Shown in pieces: positions 29,797 through 57,103 of a DNA stretch of 64,000 nt. The stretch comes from Candidatus Sumerlaeaceae bacterium (GTDB lineage Bacteria > Sumerlaeota > Sumerlaeia > Sumerlaeales > Sumerlaeaceae), in assembly GCA_049968255.1 (NCBI GenBank), contig JBMFRB010000001.1, positions 64,001 to 128,000 on the forward strand. Reading direction: 5' to 3'. The first letter of the stretch is position 1; every line of letters starts with the position of its first letter. The position numbers were made by a program, and so were the translations under genes. Under the pieces are notes generated by a model, which ran no database searches, was not told the origin of the DNA, and saw only the letters and a program-made list of their open reading frames with translations.

Positions 29797-29863
29797 GTAG
29801 GGCGACGCGCGTCGGGATTTTCGCAACGCGGCTTGGACACGGAGTGAGCTTGCGCTTCGGAGC

Positions 29864-32800
29864 TTACTCCGTGTTTGTTATTTTGCGCATGCGGGTGCGG
29901 CCTGCTTTGGCCACCGGATTTTTGGCATCTATCTTGAGAACCATCTCGTAAGTTTCGAGCGCGCGTAGGGCAGCGCCACGTCCTTCGTAGGAACGGGCCA
30001 GTTCGATAAGGTCGGCAATTGCCTCGTGTTCGGGGGCGATCTGAAGAAGCGCGTTCACGTATTTACGAATGAGCTCCGGGCTCGAGTTATCTATCTCCCT
30101 GGCTTTGCGGTAGCACTCAATGGCACGGTCTACATCTCCAGCCTGATAGACGAGGTCTCCAAGTCGCACGAGATATTCATAGCGCTTGGCTGGCTCGAGG
30201 TGCGCGGCCTCGAGTTTTGCCGAGAGCGATTCGATCGTTTCTGGTTCGTATTGCTTGGCCAAATTTTCCTGTTCGCGAGCTCGCTCCATCTCGCCGGAGC
30301 TACGGTAAAGCTCTGCAAGCACTAGCGCATTTGCAGCGGCCTCGGCGCGCTCCCTCACCGTCATCAGCAAATCGCTAAAAATTTCCCGTGTGGGGCGATG
30401 GTGCGGAACTAACTCCACGGTCCGCCGACATGCCGCCACTGCGCGCCAAGGATCGGTTTCGCGGCAGGCGCGTGCCAATTTATAAAAATGTTCGGCGGCA
30501 GCATCGGGATTGCTTGCACGGGCATAGGCTTCGGCTAGCGACTCGAGAACGTTAAGATCGGACGGATTAAGAGCATTTGCGTTGCCTAGCCATCGCACGG
30601 CGTCGGCATAATGGCCAGTGCTCATGCAGAGATCGGCAAGTTTGACCATCTCTGCTATCGCGCGACTGCGCTGGCCGGCGCTTTGCAAGAACTGAATGAA
30701 TCGCTCGCGCACCTCGCGCTGACGCCGATCTATGGAAATAATTCGCTCGAAGGTCCGCGTGGCCTCTTGGAACTGACCTTTCTTGATATAGAGATCTGCC
30801 AGCCGCTGATACTCTGGCAGGACTTCTAGTTCGTTGCCTATCTGGGCAAAAAGTTCCAAATAGCGGCTCAAAAGGGTAGGATCGTCGGGTTCGAGAAGTG
30901 TCAGCTGGTGATAAACCTCTACAGCTTCTTCTACTTCTCCGCGCATCACGAGCAGATCAGCAAATTCTTGAAGCTGCTGCATTCGTGCTTCGCGTTCGCC
31001 AAGCACCTCGAGCAGCTCGATGAGTTGGCGACGCGGCTCAATCTCTTTGGGAGCAAGCTGAATGCGGCGTTTCAACACGCCGACCGCTTCGCGCAAGCGT
31101 TTTTGGTCGAGAAGCAGTTCAGACAGTCGTTCGAGGGCGGCCAGAGCCTCGACTTGGCGATTTGCCTTGGTGCAGAGCTCTGCCAGTGCTTCGTACGCCT
31201 CAATCCACTTTGGCCGTATTTCTGACGCCCGTTGGAGAAAATGAATGGCGCGATCGTAATGTTCGTGGGCTTCCGCCTCCTTGGCGCACTGCATAAAGAG
31301 GCGCCCAGCAATCTCAGTGGCTCGGTACGCAGCGAAAAGTTCAGCCAACCGCGCGCGAAACTCGGTTCCTGCGCACGTACCAGCAAGCGCCTTTTCTGCC
31401 ACCTCCCGCGCTTCCTCGATCTCGCCTTGCTCGAGTTTCGCCCTCACAATTTCGGCGTATTCTTCCTGAGCTCGTGGCAACTGTTCGAGTTCTTCGTAGA
31501 GTTTGGCCAATTGCAAACGCACATCAAGAAGCGTGGGATCTTCCGCGACAAGCTCGGCCAACATCGCTGCCGCCTTGTGTTTGTCGCCTAACTGGATGTA
31601 ACGCTCCGCCAGATCTCGTAGACGGAAGAGAACCTCTTCCGTTTTGCCAAGACGCCGAGCAATCTCGACACGGCACTCAAGCAACGTAAGATCCTCAGGA
31701 TCGATTTCGAGCCCCTCCCGGACGAGCTCTTCGGCTTTGGGCAAATTGCGACGGTTAAGGTAATAGTGCACGAGCCATACGATTTCGGGGAGGATTTCCG
31801 CGGGAATTCCGCAACGACGATAAACTTCGAGGGCCCGCTCGCGGATCGCGGGATCGGGTTCACCGTGTTCGAGAACTTTCTCAAGCACGCGGCATGCCTG
31901 CTCGGGCTCGCCATGGTCCACAAGCGCATTCGCAAGATGAACGAGGGCATCGCGCGCAACGTCTTCATTGCCGATCAGTGCTGAAAGGTCGGCAAGGCGC
32001 TTCCACGCATCTAAGTGCGAGGGGGCTGCCCGCGTAATGGCTTCAACGCATCCTATAGCTTCGGTATATTTTTTCTCAGCTACAAAGACCTCCGAAGCTA
32101 ACCACCATTGCCGCACAGCTTCGTCGAGTTGCCCTAGCTCGGCAAGAGTCGCAGCCAAACGCTTGCGCACGTGGGCACGCTTGTCATCGAAAGCAAGGAC
32201 GGTGAGAGCTGCCTCGCGAATACGAGCGGGGTTGCCTTCTTCAAGTTCGATTTCGAAAAGTCGCTGAGCGACGTCTGCGGCTTTCTTCGTTAATTTCACG
32301 CTGGCACAACAGTCGAGCAGCATTTTCAGCGCTTCTTTGTCGTCTGGTCGTAGCGCAACAAGCTTGTCGAAGACCTCCACAGCGCGCGCAAAGTCAGAAT
32401 TTTTTGCTGCCTGATATCCCAACGTGCGAAGTGCATGGACTTGCAGCCGCTCGTCGCCTGTCAGCTGGGCCATGGCTAGGAACTTTTCCCAGGCGGGTTC
32501 ATAGTCAGGGTGGCGCTCAGCAAAGGATTTGAGAAATTCAGCTGCCGCCAGCGGCCCGTGCTGGTCTTTTTTCGTTTGCGCGATCTGGATCGCGCATTTC
32601 AGTGCACGCCCGAGATCCTTGAGCTGCTCGGCGAGTTCCAATAGCGCCTGCAAAGCTTGCTCATTGTCCGGATCCACAACGCTGATCCGCTCATAAATGG
32701 CGATGGCGCGGTCCGTGAATTTTAGCGTTTGGAGCATTTTCGCGAGCTCGAAAAGAGCCTTCACCGCCTCCTCGCCATTGCCAGCTTTGATAAGTTGCTC

Positions 32801-35800
32801 GGCGAGCTTTTCGCGAAGCTCGATATTGCCGGGATCATACTGAAGATATTTTTTTATCCATTTAGCTGCCGCGGCAGGATCATTCTTTGCTAACGTGAGA
32901 TCGACAAGTCGCTTGACCAGGTCAATGACATCCGGCTTGCGACGCTCGCGTTCGTAAAAGCTCACCAGAGTTTCCAGCGTTGGAATATCCTCGGGAAAAA
33001 CTTCCAAAACCTCGCGGTAGCAGTTTTCTTCCTCTGTGACTGCGCCGGCCTGAGCGAAGAGGCGCGCAGCTTGCAGCGATGCTTGCGCAGCCTTTGCCCC
33101 GTCGCCAAGTTTTCTGTGGATCTGGGCCGCGAGATACCAACTATCAGGGGCACTGCCCGCTAGTGAAAGGATCTTCTCGAGCACTAGTCGAGCGTCCTGG
33201 ACGCGCCCTTGTTCAATCAGCCAATCGAGGTAGATTCCGGCTAGAGCAACAAGAAATGCAGCTCCTGCCCTGTGGTTCACGCTTTCCAGGAGTTCGAACG
33301 CCGCGTCCATGGCTGCGAATTCAAGAAGTACCTTCCCCAGAACGAGGACACGTGTGCGGCTTCGCGCCACAAGGGCCGCGTCCAAGGCGCGCTTGGCAAG
33401 GTCATGCACAGCTATGTCGCCACCAGAAGCGCGGTAGAGCTTCGCGATCAAGGGAGCCGCAAGGGCTGCCGGATCGAGAGCCATAGCGCTCTCAAGTGCT
33501 TGCAGCGCAGTGCGCCATTCACCTACTGCAATGAGATCATCGGCGACCTGCGTGTAGCACTCGACGGCATGCTCTGTGTCGCCGGTGTTCGCCATGAGTT
33601 CTGCCAGTTTGAGGCTCAGCTCGGGGCTACGCGGCAGACTTTTGAGCTCGTCAATGGCCTCCTTGCGAATTTTGTTAGCATTTTTGCCAGTTGCAATTTC
33701 GCAAATACCAATGAGCTCAGCCGAGAGCTTTTGACGATCAGCTTGTTCGCGCCAAATGGCAGCCAATGCCTGGCGCACTTCGAGATTCTTCTGGGCAAGT
33801 CGTTTGGTTGTTTCGAGAATCCGTATGCGCTCATTTAGCCCGAGAGGTGCCCCGTGCTGCGCCAACCAATCGAGCGCACGCTTGGCGGCCACGTCCGCTG
33901 GCAGCATTTCCAGCAATTTGATAAGAAACTCGGTTTCCTGCGGTTCAAAGGCCAGAATGCGCTCGCACAAAGCAATGCGCTGATCGGTCTTGATCGCAGA
34001 AGAGTGCTCTGCATACTCGTATGCTTTTTTATAGGCTGAAAGGGCCTCGCGAGGCTGATTCGTTTTTTCGTACAGCTGGCCTAGCTTTTCCCAATCGAAG
34101 ACGTCGGCCACAGCAAGCTCGCAAACCTGTTTCTGCGCTACAAGCGCGCGATCCCAATGACCGGCCACCTCATAAAGGCGCGCCGTGTCGCGCCAGGAAC
34201 CGGCCGCGAAATCGATCTGCTTAGTGCGGAAATAGAGCTCTGCCAGTTCCTCGAACAATTCAGCATCATCGGGCGAAGGGGCAAGAGATGTTGCACGTCC
34301 GAAGAGTGGAATAGCGCGCAAGGGCTCATTAAGAGTATCGCGATAGTGACGCGCCACCTCCACGAACATCTGTTTCGCCTCGGCCTGAAATCCTTCTTTT
34401 TCGAGAAAATCTGCGAACTCCTCTCGAAGGGAAACTTCGTTGGGATAGCACTGGAGCAGCTCTTTGTAGAGCTCGACCGTAGCCTCGGCCTTGCCGGTGC
34501 GCTTATATGCTTCGAGAAGCTGTTCGTACAGGGGTAGCGCCGCTTGCGCACCGCGAGTGCGGTAAGTAGTCTCTGCGCGCTCTCGCAGAATTTGGAAATC
34601 CTCAGGGCGAATCTGTGCTAGCTGATCGAGCCATAAGAGGGCCTGATCTTCATCCCCTCTCGCGCGGGCGAGGTCAACCATCCGGCTTGCCACTTCTGCC
34701 GCTTGCTCAGCTCTGCCGTTGGCTAGCAGGAGCTTCAGCAGTTTTTCTTTTATGGCAATTTCTTCTGGCGCAAGGTTTTCAGCGCGGACCAATTTTTCAA
34801 GCGCAGCCTCAGGCGCCCCGGTTGCGGCGTAGTAGTCCGCCAACACTTGGAGATAGTGCACCGCAGCCTGAGCGTCGCCGCGCCGCTCGGCAACTACAGC
34901 GGCGGCTTCGAGCGCTTCCTGCGACTGTGGTTCGAGCTCTAACCATTTCGCAGCATAATGCTCGGCTGAATCTACTTTGCCTTCGCTCAGGGCAGCCGCC
35001 ACCTGTTCGCGGTAGAAAGAGATCAGAATGTCCAGCTGGCCCAATTGCGCAAGCTGAAGAGCCAGCTGCTCGATTCTTTCTAAGTCACCGCGCCGATGCG
35101 CAATCCTCACGCCGATCCGCAGGAGTCTTTCCTCGCGAGGCTGAAACTCCAAAGCCCTTGCGAAGGCCTTTTCAGCCAGCTCAGGGTCATCTTCGTCGAG
35201 AGCGCGTGTCGCAATTTCCTCATAGAGGTGGAGTGCCTCATCTTTCTCGCCCAGAAGTATGAGAACATCCGCCAACCCCAAACGCAGGTCGGGATCGTCG
35301 GGGGAAAGGCGAATCATTTGTTCGAGGATCCCGCGCTGCTGCGGCAAGTCCGCTTGCTGGCGCGCTGCTTGCAAAATCACTCGCAGCTCAGCCAGGGCAT
35401 CGGACGTTCGGCCTAACTGTTCGAGAGCAACGACAAGCTTTCGTCGGATTTCCAGTTCGTCGGGCCACTTTTCCAGGTAACGCCGAAATTCCTCTACGAG
35501 CTCGGCGTGGTTTCCACGTTTTTCTAGAAGCGCCAAGTAATCGCGATGCGCGGCTCGGGCTAGCTCTGGATCATCCAGGCGCTCGAGGATGTTTGCGCGC
35601 CGTTTGATAACATCCTCGCGCTCGGGCTCGATTTCGAGAGCCATGGCTAAATGGGCAAGAGCTTTGCGCAGATTACCGCTTTGTTCTGCAAGGTCAGCCA
35701 CACGCAAATGTGTCGCCAGGAGTTCTGCACGATTGCCTGCGCGCTGGTACCATACGGCGCTTTCTTCGAGAAGCTCAACATCATCCGGCAAGGCGGCAAC

Positions 35801-37675
35801 GCTCTTTGACAGCAGTTCTGCCATAGGAGCCGCGTCCTCTTGAGGCCAAACCGCAGCAAGGGCTTTGGCAAGTGAGCGAACCGACGTGAGGGACGTTGTG
35901 GCGAGAGCGATCTCGAGGAAATTTCGCAACAAGATGGGATCTTCGGGCGGATGTGCCGCAATGCGTGGCAGGAGCCGTTGCGCAAATTTGTCGCGGTCCT
36001 CGCGTTGCGCCTCATTGAGCAACTCCAGGCTTACCTGGGTAGCCAAGCGCGTCAGGTCTGATTCCCACAGTAGCTCTGCATATCGGAGTTTAGCCTGTGT
36101 GTCCGCGGGGTTGAGTTCCAAATAGCTCTGATAACAGGCCACTGCGCCAGCCGTGTCATCAATATCGTCGCATTCCTGCGCAGCCTCGAGGTAAAGGCGG
36201 GCCGCTGATTGCGCGCAGCCATGTTTTGCAAGAAGCGGCGCTAGTTCGAGGCGCGTTGCCGTGAGAGGTCGGATCTCGAGCGCCTGAAGCACCGCGCGCT
36301 CGCCGCCCTCCTTATCGCCCAAGGCAAAAAGAAAATCCGCGAGACTACATAGCTCTTCGAACGCCTGATCGAATTGCTCTGCCTGGCGCAAAAATGCGAT
36401 GAGATCCCAACGAAGCTCGACGCTCTCCGGCTCGTTGAAGCGTGCCTGACCGAGCAACTCGATGGCACGTTCGAGCTCTCCACGCTGGCGGGCCAAATGT
36501 GCGGCCTCCCAAAACTCTCGCGCTGCTTCCGGACCGTTTGCTTGCTCTTGCCAGATTAGGCCAAGCCACTCGTGCACTTCGGGCGAGTCGGGTTCAACGT
36601 CGAGCCAACGACGCGCTGCCTGCTGGGCTTCGAAAAACATGGTGTTTTCAATATAGAGCAGGACAAGTTCATGGAGCGCGGCCCGGGCTTGCTCGCGCTT
36701 GCCAAGTGCCACGAGCGAATCCACGTAGACAGATTGTACGCCGGCTTCGGGCCTGCGAATCGCAGCAGCTTTTTCGACAACGCGCACCACATCCGCATGC
36801 TGGCCTTGTTTCGCGTAATGAAAGGCAAGATTGTTAAGCGTGGAAATGGCGCGATCAAATTCTCGCCGCGCTAAGTGGATCTCAGCGAGTTTTTCCAGGT
36901 ATTCAAATTTATCGGGAAAGAGCGAGGAAAGCTTTTCATATACTCCAACGTTCTCTGCCTGTCGGCCCGATGCTTCACGGCGCGAGGCCAACTCAAGTAG
37001 GAGTGTTTCCGCCCGCTCGCGATTCCCCTGAAGTTCAGCGCTATGCACCTTCAGGAGCAGAAGGTCCTCATTTTCCGGAAAATCCATCGACGCGCGCTCG
37101 AGCACACGGTCCGCATCCTCGTACTTGCTCTGCCCGAGATAGTTCTCGGCAACTGCGATAAATTCGTCGCACGCTTGAGCCGACTCGCCTTTTGCGGCTA
37201 AAATATTTGCGAGGAGCAAACGTGCTTCCAAAAGGTCCGGACGAAATTTGATTGCTTCGCGTGCTGCAGCTTCAGCCTTCGCGTGATCGTAATCCACGAA
37301 AGCACGCTCCGCTTCGTCGAGAAAAGACAGAGCGACCTGGTCGAGTTGCGATGTATCTATTTCGAGCTGAAAAAGTCGAACAAGCTCGGTTGCCGCGGCC
37401 AATGGTGGAATTTCGCGGACATACGCGTAGAGTTCCACCAATGATCCGCCCTGATAGCCGGCGCATGTCTTTGTTGTGCACTTGAAGGTTTTCTTCTTTG
37501 CGTCGATGAGCAGCGAGCGAAACCGCGTGTCCTTGTGAATGGGACAGAAGGCTTTGACCGAGGCTCCAACGACCTGGATCTTGTCAGCAGCAAACCCGAT
37601 CTGCTCCAGCAAAGCGACGGGATCCAGCTGTTCGTTGACCTGCTCGATGAGACCTGTCGCTGCCTGAACGTTCAT
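29864..37675 (-). CDS. Giant TPR-repeat protein with N-terminal DnaG-type CHC2 zinc finger
   Basis: 2603 aa; FCPIH...FKCTTKTC...GGSLVELYAYV...AATELVRLF then continuous TPR-like helical repeats; no signal or TM; SD AAGGAG. Confidence 0.88.
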   Translation of the reverse strand: MNVQAATGLIEQVNEQLDPVALLEQIGFAADKIQVVGASVKAFCPIHKDTRFRSLLIDAKKKTFKCTTKTCAGYQGGSLVELYAYVREIPPLAAATELVRLFQLEIDTSQLDQVALSFLDEAERAFVDYDHAKAEAAAREAIKFRPDLLEARLLLANILAAKGESAQACDEFIAVAENYLGQSKYEDADRVLERASMDFPENEDLLLLKVHSAELQGNRERAETLLLELASRREASGRQAENVGVYEKLSSLFPDKFEYLEKLAEIHLARREFDRAISTLNNLAFHYAKQGQHADVVRVVEKAAAIRRPEAGVQSVYVDSLVALGKREQARAALHELVLLYIENTMFFEAQQAARRWLDVEPDSPEVHEWLGLIWQEQANGPEAAREFWEAAHLARQRGELERAIELLGQARFNEPESVELRWDLIAFLRQAEQFDQAFEELCSLADFLFALGDKEGGERAVLQALEIRPLTATRLELAPLLAKHGCAQSAARLYLEAAQECDDIDDTAGAVACYQSYLELNPADTQAKLRYAELLWESDLTRLATQVSLELLNEAQREDRDKFAQRLLPRIAAHPPEDPILLRNFLEIALATTSLTSVRSLAKALAAVWPQEDAAPMAELLSKSVAALPDDVELLEESAVWYQRAGNRAELLATHLRVADLAEQSGNLRKALAHLAMALEIEPEREDVIKRRANILERLDDPELARAAHRDYLALLEKRGNHAELVEEFRRYLEKWPDELEIRRKLVVALEQLGRTSDALAELRVILQAARQQADLPQQRGILEQMIRLSPDDPDLRLGLADVLILLGEKDEALHLYEEIATRALDEDDPELAEKAFARALEFQPREERLLRIGVRIAHRRGDLERIEQLALQLAQLGQLDILISFYREQVAAALSEGKVDSAEHYAAKWLELEPQSQEALEAAAVVAERRGDAQAAVHYLQVLADYYAATGAPEAALEKLVRAENLAPEEIAIKEKLLKLLLANGRAEQAAEVASRMVDLARARGDEDQALLWLDQLAQIRPEDFQILRERAETTYRTRGAQAALPLYEQLLEAYKRTGKAEATVELYKELLQCYPNEVSLREEFADFLEKEGFQAEAKQMFVEVARHYRDTLNEPLRAIPLFGRATSLAPSPDDAELFEELAELYFRTKQIDFAAGSWRDTARLYEVAGHWDRALVAQKQVCELAVADVFDWEKLGQLYEKTNQPREALSAYKKAYEYAEHSSAIKTDQRIALCERILAFEPQETEFLIKLLEMLPADVAAKRALDWLAQHGAPLGLNERIRILETTKRLAQKNLEVRQALAAIWREQADRQKLSAELIGICEIATGKNANKIRKEAIDELKSLPRSPELSLKLAELMANTGDTEHAVECYTQVADDLIAVGEWRTALQALESAMALDPAALAAPLIAKLYRASGGDIAVHDLAKRALDAALVARSRTRVLVLGKVLLEFAAMDAAFELLESVNHRAGAAFLVALAGIYLDWLIEQGRVQDARLVLEKILSLAGSAPDSWYLAAQIHRKLGDGAKAAQASLQAARLFAQAGAVTEEENCYREVLEVFPEDIPTLETLVSFYERERRKPDVIDLVKRLVDLTLAKNDPAAAAKWIKKYLQYDPGNIELREKLAEQLIKAGNGEEAVKALFELAKMLQTLKFTDRAIAIYERISVVDPDNEQALQALLELAEQLKDLGRALKCAIQIAQTKKDQHGPLAAAEFLKSFAERHPDYEPAWEKFLAMAQLTGDERLQVHALRTLGYQAAKNSDFARAVEVFDKLVALRPDDKEALKMLLDCCASVKLTKKAADVAQRLFEIELEEGNPARIREAALTVLAFDDKRAHVRKRLAATLAELGQLDEAVRQWWLASEVFVAEKKYTEAIGCVEAITRAAPSHLDAWKRLADLSALIGNEDVARDALVHLANALVDHGEPEQACRVLEKVLEHGEPDPAIRERALEVYRRCGIPAEILPEIVWLVHYYLNRRNLPKAEELVREGLEIDPEDLTLLECRVEIARRLGKTEEVLFRLRDLAERYIQLGDKHKAAAMLAELVAEDPTLLDVRLQLAKLYEELEQLPRAQEEYAEIVRAKLEQGEIEEAREVAEKALAGTCAGTEFRARLAELFAAYRATEIAGRLFMQCAKEAEAHEHYDRAIHFLQRASEIRPKWIEAYEALAELCTKANRQVEALAALERLSELLLDQKRLREAVGVLKRRIQLAPKEIEPRRQLIELLEVLGEREARMQQLQEFADLLVMRGEVEEAVEVYHQLTLLEPDDPTLLSRYLELFAQIGNELEVLPEYQRLADLYIKKGQFQEATRTFERIISIDRRQREVRERFIQFLQSAGQRSRAIAEMVKLADLCMSTGHYADAVRWLGNANALNPSDLNVLESLAEAYARASNPDAAAEHFYKLARACRETDPWRAVAACRRTVELVPHHRPTREIFSDLLMTVRERAEAAANALVLAELYRSSGEMERAREQENLAKQYEPETIESLSAKLEAAHLEPAKRYEYLVRLGDLVYQAGDVDRAIECYRKAREIDNSSPELIRKYVNALLQIAPEHEAIADLIELARSYEGRGAALRALETYEMVLKIDAKNPVAKAGRTRMRKITNTE

Positions 37676-37755
37676 GGGCTCCTTCTGTTATATCTTAGCG
37701 TCGCCACTGGGGCCACAATGCTTCGTCAAAACGCGCGTCGCCGAACTTGCAGCTC

Positions 37756-40452
37756 TCACGCCTGATAGACTTTAATGTTATCGAGATACAGCACACCAGT
37801 CGTGGCAAGATTGTCGCGGATCGACAACGTGTTGACGTAGCCATAATTGGAGGCCAGCTTCGCGTCGCGAATGACTTCCTGGCCGTCTACGTAGGCGGTC
37901 ACAGTCCCCGCCAGAAGGTTGAGCTCATACTTGACATGACGCCAAGTGCCCAGATCGTAAGGCAGCGGTTCGCCTTGCACGCGCAAGGTTGGCTGCGAGC
38001 GCGAATCGAGTCGATGGATAATCGTGTGGACCGATTGCTTGAAATCTTCGTCTTTTTCGATGTAAAAGCCAAGCAAGTACTTATTTTTCTCGTCGCAACG
38101 GATGTCGAATTCGACGACCACCAAGCCTGTGGCTTTCGGGAAATGACAAACGTAATGTGCGCTTCCCGACCCAGTGCGCTTCTCGAATTTGAGACACCCT
38201 TTCGAGCCAGGTGCGGGGGAACTTGAATCCACGGTAAGGCTGGCGTAGTCGTATTCGCCTTGCCATCCCCGCGGTTGTGCACCTGGCTCCTCGTCGTCAA
38301 ACGTTTGTTCGAAAATGATTTTCTTGCCTTCGGTGCCAGCAGGGCCAGACGCTGCTGGTCCAACAGCGGGCAGTTTGGTCGTGGGCTCGAAGGCCGGCGC
38401 TGACTCAGCAGGAGAAACTTGCGACGGAGAGGACTCCACCTGACGACTCTCCATCCCTGCAGAGCTTGCTTGCGACGGAATCTCGGTTGTCTCATCGTTG
38501 AGTGAGAGGCGTGGCATGGGCGCTTCGGCAACGGGGGGTGTAGTCGGTTGGGACTGCTCCTTGGGTTCTGCGCCGATTAGCACGTCAAGATTCACACTCG
38601 AAAGAGCATCGAGATTCAGCGGTGATGGCTCGTTTTCGCCGCGCGGAGGTGCCGTTTGGGTTTCTTCGAGTCCTGGCAAAGGAACCTCGAGATCTGGCAG
38701 CTTTAGTTCGGCTTCAGCCTCACCGGCCTTGGCCGAAGCCGGCGAAGCAGTTGTGCCGCTCCCGATGAGATCGTTTAGCACAAGCACGTCAGCTTCTCCG
38801 GCCGGTCGCTCCTGCTGAATGACTTCGCCTTCCGCCACCTCGGGCTTGAAAATCTCAGGCGCCGAGGTCTTCGCCGGTTCTTCTTCAGGCTCAGGCTGAG
38901 CTGTCGCCACCTGCTGCAAAATCGAACTTCCCAATGCGCCAGCACCCGCAAGCGCACTAGGGACGCTGCTGAGCGCGGGAGCGGGCGGAGCTTCGGGTTT
39001 GCGTTCAGCTGCGCGTTTGGGTTTCTCGGGAGCTGCTTTTGTCTCCTCGACCTTTTTCACCGCTGCTGCCCCCGACGGTGCGGACGCGCCTTCAGCAGCA
39101 AGGTGCTGTACTTCTTCCAGAATTTTCCGCTCGCGGCGAGTGGTGACAATAACGTAACCCGCCAGTGCCAGAACGCTGAGGACGAGCACCCCTCCCCCCA
39201 CATAGAACAACATGATTTGCTTACCTGCGGCACCGCCTGCTCCTGGCACTGGGGCAGGTTTTTGAAGCTTATCGTTGACCTCGCGCAGGAGTTTCTGCGC
39301 CTCAGGGTTTGCAGGATCAATGGTCTTGATGGAGATGAGCGCAACACGCGCATCTTCGAGACGATTCGCTGCGATGGAGGCCTTGGCCTCGTTGAGCAAC
39401 TGCTGGATGCGCTTACGTTCTTCGGTTTTCTGGCCTTCAGCAGAGGGACCGGCCCTAAGCGTGTTGAGCTGAGCAATGTAGAAAGCCAACGACGGATCGT
39501 TCGGATCAATGGACCGCAGTTCTTCGAGTGCGGCCTCGGCGGCTTGCAAATTCTTTGCAAGAAGCGCATTATTGAATTTTTCCTGAATGGGGCGGACTTT
39601 GCGCAGGCGCTCGCGGTTAGCCTGTTCGTTTGTGGTGACGAGCTTGACGACGTTTGCGACCTCACTGCGGAGCTTCTTCAGGTCTTCGCGCAATTGCACA
39701 ATTTCGTCTGCTGAAGCCAGGCCCGCGCTGGCACGCTCCCGCATGCGGATAAGTTCTTTCGCTTTTTCCTGTTCTTCGGGCGTAAGTTTCTGGGCTTCTG
39801 CCGGCAATGCTACCTCACGGCTTTCCACCGCCGCACGCGATGTGGGCGCTGTCTCACGCGTCTCGATTGTCTTGGCGAACGAATAACCATCGTTGCGCAA
39901 CTGATTGAGGAGTTTTTCCGCGTCGCGCTCTGTGGGGAATGCACCGATGACAACCTTGTACACGCCGCCGTCCTCGATAATGTCCACACCGGCATAGTCA
40001 TCGCTCAGAAGGGTTTGCTGAAGTCCTTCGGCCTGCCGCCGGTCCGGAAACTCGCCCACAGCAACGCGGTAGACACGGCCGGCCTCCGCACGGCTCACAA
40101 CTTTTTCCGTGGCGGATTCCGCCTGCACAATGCCCTCGGGTTGATAGCCAGATTCTTGAAGATCTTTGATGAGGGCATTTGCTTGGGCTTCGCTTTCGAG
40201 AGGGCCAATGAGGACACTATAGTTACCCTGCGCATCGACGGCCAACTCGATGGATGCGCCGGAACCATATCCGTCCGCCTGCAAATAGCGTTGGAGCTGG
40301 GTCGCATCCTTCTCTTTGAGATTCGAAGCTACGCGTACTTTGACTTCGCCTGCCCCCCCGCCAGGAACACCTTCGCTTTTGGGAGCGGCAAACAGGGCGG
40401 TAACAAACAACGCGACTATTCCTAGAACTTGAGCTCGAAGAAGCGGCTTCAA
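37756..40452 (-). CDS. Bitopic membrane protein: signal, 2x SPOR, helical region, TM, P/A/E-rich linker, C-terminal jelly-roll-like domain
   Basis: YSVLIGP..SEAQA and YRVAVGEF/YKVVIGAF SPOR patterns; TM QIML...VIV followed by RRERK; IIFEQTFD...LYLDNIKV; TTG start with AAGGAG. Confidence 0.82.
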   Translation of the reverse strand: MKPLLRAQVLGIVALFVTALFAAPKSEGVPGGGAGEVKVRVASNLKEKDATQLQRYLQADGYGSGASIELAVDAQGNYSVLIGPLESEAQANALIKDLQESGYQPEGIVQAESATEKVVSRAEAGRVYRVAVGEFPDRRQAEGLQQTLLSDDYAGVDIIEDGGVYKVVIGAFPTERDAEKLLNQLRNDGYSFAKTIETRETAPTSRAAVESREVALPAEAQKLTPEEQEKAKELIRMRERASAGLASADEIVQLREDLKKLRSEVANVVKLVTTNEQANRERLRKVRPIQEKFNNALLAKNLQAAEAALEELRSIDPNDPSLAFYIAQLNTLRAGPSAEGQKTEERKRIQQLLNEAKASIAANRLEDARVALISIKTIDPANPEAQKLLREVNDKLQKPAPVPGAGGAAGKQIMLFYVGGGVLVLSVLALAGYVIVTTRRERKILEEVQHLAAEGASAPSGAAAVKKVEETKAAPEKPKRAAERKPEAPPAPALSSVPSALAGAGALGSSILQQVATAQPEPEEEPAKTSAPEIFKPEVAEGEVIQQERPAGEADVLVLNDLIGSGTTASPASAKAGEAEAELKLPDLEVPLPGLEETQTAPPRGENEPSPLNLDALSSVNLDVLIGAEPKEQSQPTTPPVAEAPMPRLSLNDETTEIPSQASSAGMESRQVESSPSQVSPAESAPAFEPTTKLPAVGPAASGPAGTEGKKIIFEQTFDDEEPGAQPRGWQGEYDYASLTVDSSSPAPGSKGCLKFEKRTGSGSAHYVCHFPKATGLVVVEFDIRCDEKNKYLLGFYIEKDEDFKQSVHTIIHRLDSRSQPTLRVQGEPLPYDLGTWRHVKYELNLLAGTVTAYVDGQEVIRDAKLASNYGYVNTLSIRDNLATTGVLYLDNIKVYQA

Positions 40453-40664
40453 TGTCCCTCTCTCCTTAATAATTCAGCATTTACCCGCGGAAGGCGGCCC
40501 TTTCACGTTTTAGGCTCTTGAGCTAAACCATACGTGTCGCTGGTGCGAGGTCAACCATGAACCTACCGTCAAGCGCACCTTTGACGTCTGCTGGCTACAC
40601 CGTCACTAGAGCGCTGTAAACGAGAGCGCGTGTCCACAAAAAATTTCAAAATCTGTCCGTCAGC

Positions 40665-41504
40665 TCAGCGCTGATAAGCGACAGCTGCGTAGCCAACAAC
40701 GTAGTCTTCGCTCAGAGGGTGTGCCTCATAGCTGGTGGTGAGCGAAAGAACGGTGCCTCGCGTAGCTCCCAGGGTGCGAGCCATGAGCATCGCCGTGGTG
40801 ATAGGTCCAGCACCACATGCCATATACTCCCCGCTCTCAACGCCGGATGAAAATTCTATCGGTTCCAGCGCCGCGATCGCCCTCGCTGTGTGTTCACTCT
40901 CGCGATAAGCACGCTCGGCTCCTGGCCCATGATAAAGGTCCGAACTTGCCACGATGATCGTGGACTTGGGAAGCTTTTCCATGACGTTGAGCAGTGCCGT
41001 GGCTACCCGCTTGCAGTTCGAAAGCGAACGGTCGTAAATCACCACCGGCACTAGTTCGAAGTTCCTCAGTACATACTGGAGGAAGGGCAACTGCACTTCG
41101 AGTGAATGTTCGCGCCGCTCTGCGTCGGGATAGAAATCAAAGATATGGTGGTTCTCCAAAAGTTCAGCGACAAACTGGCGATCGAGCGGCACATTGCCGA
41201 ATGGCGTGGCAAAAGCCCTGCCGGGAAATACGCTCGCGCCGGGAAACGCAGCATAATGGCTGGGTGCTAACACAATAGCGCGTTCTATTGCGCGCTCTTC
41301 CAACAGCTTATAAGCGTGAGCCGCAGTCAGGCCACTGTAAATATATCCGGCGTGAGGCGACACGAGCGCGATAGGATCGATCTCGCGCGGCACCACGGCC
41401 GCACCAAAGAAACGATCGAGGAGCTGGCGCAACTCTGACGGATCAGAAGGGTAAAACCCGTAGTGCCCCGCGTTCACTGCAGGCCGAACTTCTGTGGTCC
41501 ACAT
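40665..41504 (-). CDS. AmmeMemoRadiSam protein B (MEMO1 family), stand-alone
   Basis: PHAGYIYSG, APSH, EHSLEVQLPFLQ, ASSDLYH, ACG-GP, VVGYAA. Confidence 0.9.
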   Translation of the reverse strand: MWTTEVRPAVNAGHYGFYPSDPSELRQLLDRFFGAAVVPREIDPIALVSPHAGYIYSGLTAAHAYKLLEERAIERAIVLAPSHYAAFPGASVFPGRAFATPFGNVPLDRQFVAELLENHHIFDFYPDAERREHSLEVQLPFLQYVLRNFELVPVVIYDRSLSNCKRVATALLNVMEKLPKSTIIVASSDLYHGPGAERAYRESEHTARAIAALEPIEFSSGVESGEYMACGAGPITTAMLMARTLGATRGTVLSLTTSYEAHPLSEDYVVGYAAVAYQR

Positions 41505-41612: not shown

Positions 41613-42824
41613 TTACGCCCTGCTTACACTTTTTCCTGCGAAGCTCTGCGACCCACGGGCTAACACATATGAACCTATAACAAGCAGAGCGAAGATACCC
41701 CACATGATCAGATGATTGCGCCAGAGGACCTCGAGCGTGGCGCCGAGCAAACACGCAACCGAGAAGGGAAGGAGAACCTTCAAGCAGGCGAACATTACCT
41801 GGTCAATGCGAACACGTGGCAAAGTCCAGCGCAGCCACAACATGACAAAGAGCAAAACAGAGGTCTTGGCCAAAAGCTGGAACAGTCCAAGGAAGGGCCG
41901 ACCTGCTGCATCAAAAGGGAAATTCCAACCACCGAGGAAAAGGATCGAGGCGACAGCACTGAGCAGCACCATGACAGCATACTCAGCCAGAAAGAAAAAC
42001 GCAAAGCGCATCCCGCTGTATTCCGTATGGAAACCGCTCACAAGCTCGCTTTCCGCCTCCGGCAGATCAAAGGGTGCACGCTTGGCGCTTGCTAAACTGG
42101 CAACGTAGAACAGGAAAAATGCGAGGAAAGCCCACGGGGAGATGAGGACAAACGGGAGAATTCGTTGCTGATTCGCGATTTCAGTAAAATTAAGCGATCC
42201 CGCCAGCGTGACGATGACAAGAGCGCTGAGGCCGAGTGGAATCTCGTAGCTCATCATCTGAGCCGCAAGGCGCATTCCACCATAAAGCGACCACTTAGAA
42301 TTCGGGGCCCAACCAGCCATAACCACACCGATCACCTCGATAGACGCGAAAGCGAGCACAAAAAACAGTGCCAAATCCATGTTGGCGACGACAAGCTTAT
42401 CGGCAAAAGGGAGCGCAACAAAAGGAACTATCGCGCCCACGAGCACCAAGGTGGGCGCAAGCGAGAATAGCAGTTTGTGCGCCTGGGCGGGAACAATGTC
42501 TTCCTTCAGGAAAAGCTTTAGGCCGTCGGCAATACTCTGCAAAATGCCGTGCCACCCCACACGCATGGGACCGAGTCGACTCTGGATGTGGCCTGCGACC
42601 TTGCGCTCCAAGTAAACGAGAATCATAACTGCAAGGCTCACAAATGCGAGGATGACGGCGAATCCAATAAGAATCGTAATCACCGCCGCAAGACTATCTG
42701 GGATTTGAGCTCCGGGCCAGATCCGAACTGAAAACACGCTGTGCGGCGTGGCGAGGAATTGTTGAATTGCCGCGGCAAGATCGAGTGCCGGGCTCGGCTG
42801 ATCGCTAAGCAAAGGTGCTTGCAT
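41613..42824 (-). CDS. nuoH: NADH-quinone oxidoreductase subunit H
   Basis: ERKVAGHIQSRLGP, ADGLKLFLKE, SYEIP, RAPFDLPEAESELVSGFHTEYSG, LPRVRIDQ; SD GAGGT before ATG 42824. Confidence 0.95.
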   Translation of the reverse strand: MQAPLLSDQPSPALDLAAAIQQFLATPHSVFSVRIWPGAQIPDSLAAVITILIGFAVILAFVSLAVMILVYLERKVAGHIQSRLGPMRVGWHGILQSIADGLKLFLKEDIVPAQAHKLLFSLAPTLVLVGAIVPFVALPFADKLVVANMDLALFFVLAFASIEVIGVVMAGWAPNSKWSLYGGMRLAAQMMSYEIPLGLSALVIVTLAGSLNFTEIANQQRILPFVLISPWAFLAFFLFYVASLASAKRAPFDLPEAESELVSGFHTEYSGMRFAFFFLAEYAVMVLLSAVASILFLGGWNFPFDAAGRPFLGLFQLLAKTSVLLFVMLWLRWTLPRVRIDQVMFACLKVLLPFSVACLLGATLEVLWRNHLIMWGIFALLVIGSYVLARGSQSFAGKSVSRA

Positions 42825-42918
42825 TGCGGGACCTCGCACTAACAAGTGATTAAGGTAAGCTTATTCATTCAGATTGCCCAACATTGGCAAAGCCTTAAGG
42901 AAAAGCTTTGTGCCAACG

Positions 42919-44190: not shown

Positions 44191-45504
44191 TTACCCTTTC
44201 CACACACCTGGGATCGGCGTCAGGCAATACTCGCAACGGCCATCGCGCAGGTGCATCGCCGTGACAGCAAAAATATCGCGTTCGACGATTGCTTTTTTGC
44301 AGTGGGGGCAAAACGTGGTTCCAGCGTCAGGAATCTCCATGACATTCCCAATATAGACGTAGCGCAAGCCTGCGGCACGTGCTTCATCGCGAGCGCGTTC
44401 GAGGATGGTGACGGGGGTCGGGGGTAAATGCGTGAGCCGATGCGCAGGATGAAAACGTGAAAAGTGCAGGGGAACATCCGGGCTAACCTCGTGGGCTAGC
44501 CACTCGCACATGCGACGGATGGTGGTAAGATTATCAGTGTACGTCGGCACAATAAGGTTGATGATCTCAACCCACACACCTTCCTCTCGCAGCGTTCGTA
44601 TGGCATCGAGCACCGGCTGAAGATGACCGGAGTTGAGCTTCATGTAGGTTGCCTCGTCGAAGCCTTTGAGGTCCACATGGGCTGCATCGAGATAACGCGC
44701 TAACTCGCGCAGTGGCTCGGTGCGAATGTATCCGCTTGTGACGAGGATATTTTTCACACCGGCGCTCCGAGCTTTTTGAGCGGTATCGTAGGTGTATTCG
44801 TACCATGCGACGGGCTCTGAATAGGTGTAGGATATAGAGGGGGAACCACTGGCCTTTGCCAAGGCGACGACGTCGTCGGGCGTCATTGTAAGCCTGGCTA
44901 ATTCTTCCAAGCTTGCCGGTGGGGGCGCGCCGGGACGAAAACGAAACTCTGGGCCGTCGGCTTTCTTTGTCTCCTCAGGGCGTTTTTGCGAGATCTCCCA
45001 ATTTTGGCAATTCATGCAACGCAGGACACAGCCAGCAATGGCGAGCGAGAACGTGCGGCTTCCTGGCAAAAAATGAAACAGCGGTTTTTTCTCCACAGGG
45101 TCTAAGTGGAACGAGCACGGGTTGCTGTAGGCGAGCGTATAGAGCGTGCCGCCGCGATTGATGCGCGTCCGGCAATGGCTGCGGTCGCCTGGTTCAAGCG
45201 CGCACCGATTGGGACAGATCGTGCATTGGACGTTCGCACCATCCTTACGGTAAAACATTGCCTCCCGAATCCACCCACGACGTTGCCACATTTCGAATGT
45301 GTTGTCGTCGGGCGCGCCCTTTTTGAAGACGCCCGGATTGTCCTGCGTGGCGTCTGTGATTGCTGACGAGCTGAAAAGCCATCCCCACGACGCGCTGGCC
45401 CAGCATGCCATTCCCCCAGCGATTCCAAGACGGAGCAGATCACGACGCGAAAGTAGAAGCTGTTCCCATCGCCTGTCGTCGCTTATGTTCTGGCGATCCT
45501 TCAT
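44191..45504 (-). CDS. AmmeMemoRadiSam radical SAM enzyme with twin-arginine signal
   Basis: SRRDLL + hydrophobic stretch; CTICPNRC, DPVEKKPLFHF, CVLRCMNCQNWEISQ, YTYSEP, HFSRFHP, CPHC..CEYC. Confidence 0.92.
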   Translation of the reverse strand: MKDRQNISDDRRWEQLLLSRRDLLRLGIAGGMACWASASWGWLFSSSAITDATQDNPGVFKKGAPDDNTFEMWQRRGWIREAMFYRKDGANVQCTICPNRCALEPGDRSHCRTRINRGGTLYTLAYSNPCSFHLDPVEKKPLFHFLPGSRTFSLAIAGCVLRCMNCQNWEISQKRPEETKKADGPEFRFRPGAPPPASLEELARLTMTPDDVVALAKASGSPSISYTYSEPVAWYEYTYDTAQKARSAGVKNILVTSGYIRTEPLRELARYLDAAHVDLKGFDEATYMKLNSGHLQPVLDAIRTLREEGVWVEIINLIVPTYTDNLTTIRRMCEWLAHEVSPDVPLHFSRFHPAHRLTHLPPTPVTILERARDEARAAGLRYVYIGNVMEIPDAGTTFCPHCKKAIVERDIFAVTAMHLRDGRCEYCLTPIPGVWKG

Positions 45505-45546
45505 TGCCGGTTTCCCTTACTAAATTACCCATGGCTGCAGGATTTC

Positions 45547-47766
45547 TCACAGCGATTCCGAACTTCTCGCAACCTGTCGGGGTGCTGCGACGAAAAAAGC
45601 TGTGGAAGCGAGAAATAAGCCACAGACTGCTGCGGGAATCATCATTCCTAATGCGGGGACGAATAAGGTGGCGAAGAGGACCGCCCCCAGTGCTCCGCCA
45701 ACAAAATCTGCAGAATAGAGCTGTGAAGCGCGTGCTGTGAGCTCCTGCTCAGCTATCCTACTGCATAGTGCAAAGACCGCGCCAGTGGCGGCGCCGAGCG
45801 CCAAGAGTTCGCCGGCAAAGAGCCACTCAACTAGCCAGATTCTCAGCTGTGACAGGTGTGGACGAGAGGCCATGCTATTGCAAATGAAGGGGAGAGCAAC
45901 CACAATCACCGCATGTGCGGCGGCCAATGCCGCATTAGACAAAAGGGAAATCAATAAGGCACGGTGCAACGCATCTACCCGCCGCGTGGCTCGCACACCT
46001 ATCGCCAACCCTGCCATGAACAGCGTGATGAGGAGTGCCGAGAGGTAGTAGAGAGTTCCCGCGACGGTTTGCACCGCGGCAAGGGCAAGATATTCTAGGC
46101 CCGAGGCGCTGAAACCTGTGGCGAAAACTGGCCACTGCAGACGGCGCATTCTCCACGCGTACATGAAGAGGATGACAAGCAACCCTGCCTCAAGAAGACC
46201 GAACCGAAAGCCATACTCGCGCAGCCATCTCCGCAGCGCGAAATGATTTGCAATGGGGAAGAAGTCCGCATTTTCGGGCGCATGCGCTGATTGCGCGCGT
46301 TCGAGTGCGGCGATTCGGTCAGGAGCAGCAACCGTGGCAGCCAAGAAACTTGGCCGCACGTAAACCGTGCGAAGGTTACGCTGCGCGAATGCACCTGCTA
46401 AATCGGTAGCAAGCGGCCTGTCGGAGGCGAGGAGCAAGATTAGGTCCGAGGGCAATAGGCGGACATGGTGAAACTCTGCACCAAATGCGCGAGACACCGA
46501 GGCAATAAGCTGTGCGCGAGGAGCATCGAAGTACTCCGTGTATTCGCCTAATGGCAATGCAATGACCCCTCCCGATTTCAATGCATCCCGCGCTGTGCGT
46601 GCAAATTCCCTCGTGAAATAGCGATTGGCGAGAAGTGTGGTTGGCAATGCTTCGTCCACAAGAATGACATCTATCTCGCTTCGATATCTTGCTAAAAAAT
46701 TGCGCGCGTCGTCGAGCACGACATGGACATGCGTGCCGCTTGCAAAGTCACCTCGATCGCTTAAAGCAGCCTCAAGTGCAGGATCGGGCTGGACGAATGT
46801 CACGTCGGCGACGCCATGTTGCTGAATCGCGACCAACACATCGCGTCGGGGCGGGCCAATCACCAGAACATGCTTCGGCGCAGGATGTGCCAACAGGGGC
46901 AAATGAACGAACTGCTCAACCGACTCCGGAGTATCGGTCGAAAACATTGGCGCCCCATTTCGGAAATAAGTGCGCTGCCCCCCTAGCTCGCTGACAATAA
47001 TTTGTCCGTACGGCGAACGGCCTTCAAACACAAGTTTGCCTGCGGGAATCAGCCAAGAAAGAGAAGGTCGTTCCATAAACGCCCCGACCACGAGCGCCAA
47101 CACGGCTAACGCGATCCAAGCGAAGCGGACGTCCATGAGCTTGCGCAAAGCGGGCAGCGGATCTGCGAGAGCTGCACTTACAAGCGCCACCGCGACAAGA
47201 GCTGACGTCTGCAAATGCCCCAACCACCGAGAGAGAACAAAAGCAAAAAGTACACCTCCGATTAGGCTACCCACAGCATCCAAGAGGTAGCTCTGGCTAA
47301 TGCCAAATTCCCTCTCATTGAGGGCAAGCCGCTGCGTGTTGCGCACAAGGAAAAAAGCGCTCAGCGAACAAAAAGGTATTTGGGCAAGTGTGGCGACGGT
47401 GAGCTGCGCCGACAACCCTAAGCCGCCCCCCGCCAGGAAAAGAGTATGGCGGGCCGAGCGCAGCGCAAGAATCGTCAACAATGGGAAAACCGCCAGCAGT
47501 GCCCAGAGCCACCGCTCGCCAACGCTAAGGCGGCCGGCACGGGGCGGACACCATCGCGCCAAGGCGCTGGCTAAACCACCAAAAAGAAGCCAGCTGCCAA
47601 GAGCGAGCCCGATGAGATATTCGTTGCCTCCGTAGGAGCCCATGAGCTCACGAAGAAGCGCGAACTGCACCCAAGGCGCTGTCAGCCCCAGGGCTAAGAT
47701 TTTCAGCCGAAGCTGACGCCCGCAAAAGCTTCCCCTGGTCGACGATGATGCGCTCTCGAACGCCAT
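45547..47766 (-). CDS. Fused multi-TM / spermidine-synthase-like membrane protein
   Basis: 7 N-terminal TM (RELM..YGGNE, YLLDAVG), SPYGQI, DDARNFL, NRYFTREF, C-terminal TM block (LYSADFVGG); ATG at 47766. Confidence 0.82.
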   Translation of the reverse strand: MAFESASSSTRGSFCGRQLRLKILALGLTAPWVQFALLRELMGSYGGNEYLIGLALGSWLLFGGLASALARWCPPRAGRLSVGERWLWALLAVFPLLTILALRSARHTLFLAGGGLGLSAQLTVATLAQIPFCSLSAFFLVRNTQRLALNEREFGISQSYLLDAVGSLIGGVLFAFVLSRWLGHLQTSALVAVALVSAALADPLPALRKLMDVRFAWIALAVLALVVGAFMERPSLSWLIPAGKLVFEGRSPYGQIIVSELGGQRTYFRNGAPMFSTDTPESVEQFVHLPLLAHPAPKHVLVIGPPRRDVLVAIQQHGVADVTFVQPDPALEAALSDRGDFASGTHVHVVLDDARNFLARYRSEIDVILVDEALPTTLLANRYFTREFARTARDALKSGGVIALPLGEYTEYFDAPRAQLIASVSRAFGAEFHHVRLLPSDLILLLASDRPLATDLAGAFAQRNLRTVYVRPSFLAATVAAPDRIAALERAQSAHAPENADFFPIANHFALRRWLREYGFRFGLLEAGLLVILFMYAWRMRRLQWPVFATGFSASGLEYLALAAVQTVAGTLYYLSALLITLFMAGLAIGVRATRRVDALHRALLISLLSNAALAAAHAVIVVALPFICNSMASRPHLSQLRIWLVEWLFAGELLALGAATGAVFALCSRIAEQELTARASQLYSADFVGGALGAVLFATLFVPALGMMIPAAVCGLFLASTAFFVAAPRQVARSSESL

Positions 47767-47782
47767 GTTCCGAGCCGCAGCG

Positions 47783-56881: not shown

Positions 56882-57103
56882 GCTGGTGCGGTCATGTTTT
56901 TTCGGGTGGAGTGAAAAGTTCCCTTCCCGTTCTTGGAGTAACACAGTGGCAACTCCTACACGCGCATTTATTTACTCTTATATTGATTTTGCAGAAAAAG
57001 TCACGAGTCAATCCTTGTTTGGCAGAAAGCGTGGGTAAGCTCGCTTGATGACAAGCATGTTATTGTTACCGAAGCCCCGCCGAACCGTTGGCAGGTAGGT
57101 ACT

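Follow-up and report, generated by a model that had tools for sequence, protein, structure and literature searches.

The FimV and HubP proteins, as outlined in PMC12918733, combine a periplasmic peptidoglycan-binding domain, a transmembrane helix, an acidic cytoplasmic region and a C-terminal tetratricopeptide repeat (TPR) domain. SPOR domains, as summarised in PMC6895207, recognise denuded glycan strands, in which the septum is enriched. Here we describe two adjacent genes, A and B, in a 64,000-nucleotide stretch of the genome of a Candidatus Sumerlaeaceae bacterium (contig JBMFRB010000001.1; the whole stretch is called the window below). Gene A encodes a membrane protein with two SPOR domains, and gene B a giant protein with a predicted CHC2 zinc ribbon and a very long TPR array. 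We consider it quite possible, if short of probable, that the two products together form a peptidoglycan-anchored septal or polar landmark with a cytoplasmic TPR scaffold. Database annotation of the pair is limited to 'SPOR domain-containing protein' and 'tetratricopeptide repeat protein'. A sequence-only reading of this DNA had called the pairing undescribed, and a limited literature search, in part diluted by hits to 'spore', turned up no account of it; that reading had overlooked FimV/HubP, a close analogue in architecture. The genes and the gap between them lie as follows (window positions).

37756 to 40452, minus strand: gene A, SPOR-anchored bitopic membrane protein of 898 aa with a TTG start (open reading frame and translation).
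29864 to 37675, minus strand: gene B, giant cytoplasmic CHC2-zinc-ribbon and TPR protein of 2603 aa with an ATG start (open reading frame and translation).
37676 to 37755, minus strand: A-B intergenic gap of 80 nt, with AGAAGGAG ahead of the ATG of B.

A and B are a linked gene module. We compared the neighbourhoods of A at 39 loci from relatives, with 15 families sampled. A CHC2-TPR gene stands directly after A on the same strand at 24 of the 39, with gaps of 14–289 nt, and these 24 loci span 11 of the 15 families; two of the 39 stop at a contig edge, which leaves 37 that can be evaluated. The genes that flank the pair vary, with no conservation outside the window's own family, so the persistent A-then-B order is not just general synteny. 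The sequence-only reading had reported two co-oriented genes 80 nt apart, and the open reading frames are exactly where it placed them, on the minus strand; the check by neighbourhood conservation that it had proposed came out in favour of the linkage.

Sumerlaeota (BRC1) is a widespread phylum that is known almost wholly from metagenome-assembled genomes. The window belongs to this lineage, and NCBI names close A homologs Candidatus Sumerlaeaceae. Within the class, A was found in 40 of 41 genomes, the window's own (G000, 3.1 Mb) included, and the single genome without it is 66% complete. The N-terminal 300 residues of B were found in 38 of the 41, the exceptions being G009 (66% complete), G005 (92%) and G037 (91%). 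The pair is nearly universal in Sumerlaeota, and it takes up ~10.5 kb of the window's genome.

Beyond the class, a scan of one genome per prokaryotic species, seeded by one peptide motif so that distant relatives could escape it, found the C-terminal domain of A at 57 loci; 51 of their titles read Sumerlaeota, Sumerlaeia, Sumerlaeales, Sumerlaeaceae or BRC1, six are uninformative, and no other phylum is named among the 57. When the same domain was run by HMMER against 1.84 billion representative proteins, 594 passed E ≤ 0.001, 246 passed E ≤ 1e-10 and 160 passed E ≤ 1e-30, and the match lies at the C-terminal end or at most 17 residues from it in the 150 matches listed. The domain is present as a single copy in its own genome. 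Residues 1–130 of B matched 24 giant proteins with lengths of 2574–3120 aa; a few have a source name, which reads 'tetratricopeptide repeat protein', and NCBI assigns one to Hydrogenedentota.

The anatomy of protein A, from the N-terminus to the C-terminus, is as follows.

40381 to 40452, minus strand: signal-peptide-like N-terminus (residues 1 to ~24; hydrophobic core 3–25; Kyte-Doolittle 19-residue peak of 2.09 at residue 4).
40138 to 40341, minus strand: SPOR domain 1 (residues ~38–105; PF05036, 29.2 bits).
39883 to 40080, minus strand: SPOR domain 2 (residues ~125–190; PF05036, 47.1 bits, Pfam's best stretch).
39223 to 39855, minus strand: periplasmic helical region (residues ~200–410) with weak TPR-like motifs.
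39148 to 39216, minus strand: single transmembrane helix (residues ~413–435; Kyte-Doolittle peak 2.38).
39097 to 39144, minus strand: juxtamembrane K/R cluster and conserved helix, RRERKILEEVQHL.
38323 to 39096, minus strand: acidic, P/A/E-rich disordered linker with conserved short islands.
37759 to 38322, minus strand: C-terminal concanavalin-A-like jelly roll (residues ~711–898), predicted to be cytoplasmic.

Pfam recognises SPOR in two stretches of A (E 4.5e-18; the PF05036 cut-off is 21 bits), and the second domain aligns to the SPOR structure of CwlC (1x60, E 2.5e-5) and weakly to that of FtsN (1uta, E 0.32). At E ≤ 0.01 the Pfam scan of A returned SPOR, a weak TPR_19 and a weak RraB. 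The helical region that follows the SPOR domains is well conserved in the family and has sub-threshold similarity to TPR_19 (20.8 bits) and TPR_14 (19.4 bits). Only two hydrophobic segments are present, the N-terminal one at residues 3–25, which has a similar counterpart in most A homologs, and the central one at ~413–435, which is followed by TTRRERK. The central helix occurs in 37 of the 38 A homologs examined, and the exception is a truncated open reading frame. In A itself four K/R residues fall in the 20 positions after the helix and two in the 15 before it; in the homologs the 20 positions after it hold 2–8, with at least three in 36 of 38. A motif related to the juxtamembrane helix of A, R..ELLRQVQEL, recurs in distant families.

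The linker comprises 269 residues (P 13%, A 16%, E 13%) with a net charge of -20, and linkers in 32 of the 38 homologs have net charges from -14 to -68. Within it short islands such as ERPAGEADVLVLNDL, LKLPDLEVPLPGLEE and PLNLDALSSVNLDVL are kept in an alignment of 17 sequences (A with 11 close database homologs and five homologs of the same family). The C-terminal ~190 residues are modelled by AlphaFold2 as a 14-stranded beta sandwich with a mean predicted local distance difference test score (pLDDT) of 93.6. This is the best-conserved piece of A, with a mean column identity of 54% in an alignment of 37 sequences. By sequence it resembles only Laminin_G_3, at a sub-threshold E of 0.01. By structure, the best Foldseek match is 5mqr (sialidase BT_1020; E 5.8e-9, TMq 0.69), lectin and carbohydrate-binding module folds score at TM ~0.6, and the other neighbours include the calreticulin lectin domain, sialidase carbohydrate-binding modules and alginate lyases. 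Pfam, Kyte-Doolittle profiles and AlphaFold2 together bear out the anatomy that the sequence-only reading had given for A, namely a signal, two SPOR domains, one transmembrane helix with RRERK, a P/A/E linker and a terminal beta domain.

Since A has a signal peptide and exactly one strong hydrophobic helix, its C-terminus should be cytoplasmic: the SPOR domains are predicted to be periplasmic, and the linker and jelly roll to lie inside, as the sequence-only reading had also proposed. Were the lectin-like C-terminus instead extracytoplasmic and glycan-binding, A would bind carbohydrates at the surface or in the periplasm and have nothing to do with B. The nearest solved folds, those of the sialidase, calreticulin and alginate lyase domains just named, speak for such an arrangement, as does a jelly roll with a similar LF.D.F...P..W motif start in the periplasmic N-terminus of many A homologs. 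However, the signal peptide, the SPOR domains and the one strong helix force the C-terminus inside, the K/R cluster follows that helix, and no significant similarity emerges when the profiles of the two jelly rolls are compared. We therefore give this reversed topology hardly any credence.

An extra domain that starts LFSDTF lies between the signal peptide and the SPOR domains at 18 of the 39 loci and is missing from A of the window's genus. Four of the 18 were scanned with Pfam: one passes the 3-keto-disaccharide hydrolase (DUF1080) cut-off (35.9 vs 26.8 bits), one is a sub-threshold DUF1080 match and two are without a match. The constant parts of A homologs are the central helix, the K/R cluster, the acidic linker and the C-terminal jelly roll. 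We considered an internal duplication as the source of the C-terminal jelly roll and of the periplasmic one of other families and rejected it (profile comparison probability 7%, E 0.005, not significant). In one case, locus L046 of genome G005, A is short (639 aa), with a periplasmic part of ~80 residues and no SPOR domain, and a B-type N-terminus was not found in that genome. The only other SPOR protein of the window's genome (G000:C10:2924-4348, 474 aa) has its SPOR domain near the N-terminus, at residues 46–104, and an FtsN-like protein with SPOR at the C-terminus was not seen there.

The SPOR domains could also place A among the septal-wall accessories. A would then coordinate septal peptidoglycan synthesis or remodelling as FtsN, DamX, DedD and RlpA do, and B would scaffold cytoplasmic parts of the divisome and not serve as a persistent polar hub. 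Two SPOR domains in one protein are in line with such a role, FtsZ is present in the window's genome, and the extra periplasmic jelly roll of many A homologs, of the DUF1080/3-keto-disaccharide-hydrolase type, could bind glycan. Close A homologs are even named 'cell division protein FtsN' or 'DedD' in the source databases, but these are automatic labels set off by the SPOR domain. The orientation of A is the reverse of that of FtsN, DamX and DedD, in that SPOR follows a signal peptide at the N-terminus and the large conserved part lies in the cytoplasm, and no similarity of A to the essential region of FtsN was seen. On balance we regard a role as divisome accessory as unlikely.

Protein B consists of two parts.

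37361 to 37675, minus strand: predicted N-terminal CHC2 (DnaG-type) zinc ribbon (residues 1 to ~105; ligands C44, H47, C66 and C71).
29867 to 37354, minus strand: TPR-like solenoid (residues ~108–2603), from Pfam, AlphaFold2 and Foldseek.

No hydrophobic segment of B reaches the threshold of 1.6 in a 19-residue Kyte-Doolittle window (maximum 1.59), and the protein has a net charge of -107. It matches 23 Pfam families, almost all of which are helical repeats of the TPR or a related type, with E-values down to 3e-79 (TPR_14, 253.5 bits; TPR_19, 234.1 bits); no Toprim or other catalytic domain and no DnaB-binding domain is among the 23. AlphaFold2 models residues 1–300 with a pLDDT of 94 as two helices, four short strands at 34–66 and two more helices, with regular helical hairpins from residue 108 on. 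Foldseek relates this model to TPR structures only (OGT, consensus-TPR and APC/C), so it gives no independent test of the ribbon.

The evidence that the N-terminus of B is a CHC2 ribbon is mixed but favourable. Searched alone, residues 1–120 match PF01807 at 21.4 bits (E 2.2e-4), below the cut-off of 24.9, and the alignment with Aquifex DnaG (2au3) covers residues 32–111 at E 0.038. The N-terminus of a CHC2-TPR paralog of B scores above the PF01807 cut-off (28.2 bits), and PF01807 is found in 22 of 30 ESM-Atlas neighbours of the N-terminus of B (top score 0.96, with 175 of 256 features in common). Residues C44, P45, C66 and C71 are invariant across 24 orthologs. The ribbon is also the best-conserved stretch of B, with 54–60% of positions matching among 14 orthologs vs 22–51% elsewhere. 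Of what the sequence-only reading had said of B, the TPR array and the lack of an export signal are upheld; the CHC2 finger is weaker than it implied, being sub-threshold in B itself and supported by the paralog and the invariant ligands.

Three proteins of the window's genome share the CHC2-TPR architecture, which is a small paralogous family in this lineage: B, a protein of 2152 aa and one of 481 aa. The gene for the 2152-aa paralog (G000:C3:224989-231447) comes after genes for an M23 peptidase, uppS, cdsA and a BioB-like radical SAM protein, and that for the 481-aa paralog (G000:C10:47958-49403) adjoins clpB and der.

The sequence-only reading had proposed that B contacts DNA or the replisome. 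Bound by the putative primase-type ribbon of B, the chromosome or the replication machinery would then be tethered by A and B to septal or polar peptidoglycan. HubP, which anchors the chromosome origin at the pole by way of ParA1, is a precedent for such a function. The DnaG-type ribbon is the most conserved part of B, and its face is basic, with 9 K/R vs 2 D/E at residues 39–75. Against this, B lacks a Toprim or DnaB-binding domain and carries the strong net negative charge noted above, a complete DnaG is encoded elsewhere in the genome (127.8 bits, 617-aa frame), and zinc ribbons mediate protein contacts too. Nor is any DNA-related gene consistently linked to the pair. Where B is absent downstream of A, a Hel308-like DEAD helicase gene stands there at four loci of family f10 (L033, L039, L040 and L045) and an endonuclease V gene at two loci of family f7 (L035 and L037). 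We considered these as a hint of a DNA link and rejected them as lineage-specific synteny; they occur only in families without A-B adjacency. No result supports the proposal of contact with DNA or the replisome, and we rate a linker between wall and DNA as quite improbable. A more elaborate form of the same idea is a phylum-specific trans-envelope tether, in which a primase-derived zinc ribbon on a TPR solenoid tens of nm long would capture DNA or the replisome, and the acidic tether with a lectin-fold adaptor in the cytoplasm would connect what is captured with denuded peptidoglycan of the septum. This is a long shot; if true, it would be a wall-to-chromosome tether made of parts unrelated to ParABS/HubP or PopZ.

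The landmark-plus-scaffold reading can be put as a sequence of steps. A and B would form an operon of two genes, confined to Sumerlaeota, whose products make up a wall-anchored landmark with a cytoplasmic scaffold. The signal peptide would export A and so bring the tandem SPOR domains into the periplasm. There they would bind denuded glycan, whose enrichment at the septum would concentrate A at the site of division and leave it at the new pole. The single transmembrane helix would put the juxtamembrane helix, the acidic disordered tether with its short motifs and the jelly roll into the cytoplasm. B, soluble and made up of a zinc ribbon followed by ~2500 residues of TPR solenoid, would dock on one of these cytoplasmic elements of A and offer other machines of the cytoplasm a very large platform, in functional parallel to FimV/HubP. 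Starting from the anatomy, the topology logic, the conservation and the linkage described above, we infer the localisation of A, the binding of A to B and the clients of B, with the recruitment of B by A drawn from the gene linkage. As a matter of speculation, the clients could be FtsZ and the ATPases of the T2SSE (GspE/PilB/PilT) family; the latter has 16 matches in the 3.1-Mb genome, a number that suggests many type IV filament or secretion systems.

Several observations weigh against a landmark and its scaffold. Adjacency is missing at 13 of the 37 evaluable loci, including all sampled members of families f7, f9, f10 and f13, and genomes G005 and G037, both more than 90% complete, have A and no match to the N-terminal 300 residues of B. 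Neither of the two CHC2-TPR paralogs is encoded next to an A-like gene, which means that the zinc ribbon does not serve A exclusively. For a cytoplasmic domain a concanavalin-like lectin fold is out of the ordinary, and the solved structures closest to it bind carbohydrates. Finally, the totals of the promoter and terminator scan, given below, are not clearly above those of shuffled controls.

The two genes could also be linked without any interaction of their products. Co-transcription would then serve dosage or timing, A being a wall-bound membrane protein with a cytoplasmic ligand of its own and B a general TPR scaffold or chaperone. Adjacency has been lost in four families in which both genes are kept, several genomes of f7, f9, f10 and f13 carrying a CHC2-TPR gene (3035–3127 aa) away from A, and the CHC2-TPR paralogs of the window's genome stand alone. 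In the four genomes in which the surroundings of a separated B were inspected, its neighbours include an MFS transporter, a NamZ-like enzyme, carboxypeptidase-regulatory repeats, a radical SAM enzyme and a cyclopropane synthase, and no consistent partner is found next to it. Yet the same-strand order of A then B, with its short gaps, is kept in 11 families despite the turnover of the flanks, which is the pattern expected of interacting products, and linkage without interaction seems to us rather improbable.

Shine-Dalgarno sequences precede both genes, that of A being AAGGAG 9–10 nt 5′ of its TTG start, and a consensus scan found no terminator-like site on the coding (minus) strand of the 80-nt gap. 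The scan also found two sites around the pair.

40527 to 40554, minus strand: promoter-like site TTGACC, 16 nt, TATGGT, with 9 of 12 consensus positions, in the 212-nt region upstream of A.
29834 to 29877, scored on the plus strand only: 18-bp GC-rich hairpin between the convergent rplQ and B, overlapping the stop codon of B.

The hairpin is the best terminator-like site of the scan and may be a bidirectional terminator common to rplQ and B. In total the scan gave six promoter-like sites (3.9 +/- 1.8 in shuffles) and 23 terminator-like sites (16.4 +/- 3.8 in shuffled controls), neither clearly above its control. These signals would be compatible with a two-gene operon and are no proof of one.

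On the 3′ side of B, convergent with it, are infA, rpsM, rpsK, rpsD, rpoA and rplQ. On the 5′ side of A are genes for Memo-like, lone NuoH-like, epimerase, radical SAM, spermine-synthase-like and Memo-AMMECR1 fusion proteins. The Memo-like gene lies at 40665–41504, and the radical SAM gene and the Memo-AMMECR1 fusion are at 44191–49426 with a 757-aa spermine-synthase-like gene between them; we take this set to resemble the AmmeMemoRadiSam triad, with a second Memo copy here. The NuoH-like gene (41613–42845; PF00146, E 1.3e-110) is without neighbouring NADH dehydrogenase subunits. Farther along, the gene at 54386–56944 encodes a protein of 852 aa in which an FAD-dependent oxidoreductase domain and a Golvesin C-terminal domain are combined.

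If A and B do form a landmark with its scaffold, then polar or septal hubs of the FimV/HubP kind would have arisen in bacteria more than once from different parts, with SPOR in place of LysM, a jelly roll in place of the FimV domain and the TPRs supplied in trans. The pair would also be a handle on how these cells organise type IV filament ATPases, division and possibly the chromosome. Two of the domain contexts met here have rarely or never been described: a primase-type zinc ribbon that heads a giant TPR protein, and a lectin-fold domain that is predicted to be cytoplasmic.

Among described systems, the TPR proteins SgmX (Myxococcus), PilW, LapB and MamA are like B in using cytoplasmic or membrane-proximal TPR arrays as assembly platforms, and their NCBIfam models give weak partial matches to it. 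The scores are far below the cut-offs (for SgmX, 106 vs 1800 bits) and reflect generic TPR similarity, and none of the four has a CHC2 ribbon or a SPOR-protein partner. With the zinc-binding domain of DnaG (PF01807) B shares the CHC2 ligand pattern and the helix-ribbon-helix layout. It differs in its spacing, which in the alignment with 2au3 is C-x4-C instead of C-x2-C, and in having the ribbon fused to ~2500 TPR residues and not to a Toprim or helicase-binding domain.

FtsN, DamX, DedD and RlpA resemble A in their SPOR domain, which presumably binds denuded septal glycan. In FtsN, DamX and DedD a short N-terminus lies in the cytoplasm and SPOR is C-terminal, whereas A is inverted, with a cytoplasmic part of ~465 residues. 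The NCBIfam model of RlpA matches A over the SPOR part only (27.8 bits vs a cut-off of 201).

The closest comparison is with FimV/HubP/TspA of Pseudomonas, Vibrio and Shewanella. As far as these proteins are portrayed in the source cited at the outset, they share with A an N-terminal periplasmic peptidoglycan-binding domain, one transmembrane helix, a long and strongly acidic cytoplasmic region that ends in a conserved protein-interaction module, and a similar total size; with the pair as a whole they share TPR-type interaction surfaces. No sequence homology between A-B and FimV/HubP was detectable. No match in the window's genome exceeds the cut-off of 30.65 for TIGR03504, the FimV C-terminal TPR domain; the best are 24.8 and 24.4 bits inside B and 22.2 bits in the 2152-aa paralog. 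Because A is without LysM and without the FimV C-terminal domain, we treat it, by analogy of layout, as a functional analogue and not as a member of the FimV/HubP family. Its tandem SPOR domains occupy the position of LysM, which is missing from the Pfam scan of A, its terminal module is a jelly roll and not the TIGR03504 domain, which has no match in A, and the TPRs that FimV and HubP carry themselves are here supplied in trans by a separate 2603-aa, CHC2-bearing protein, B.

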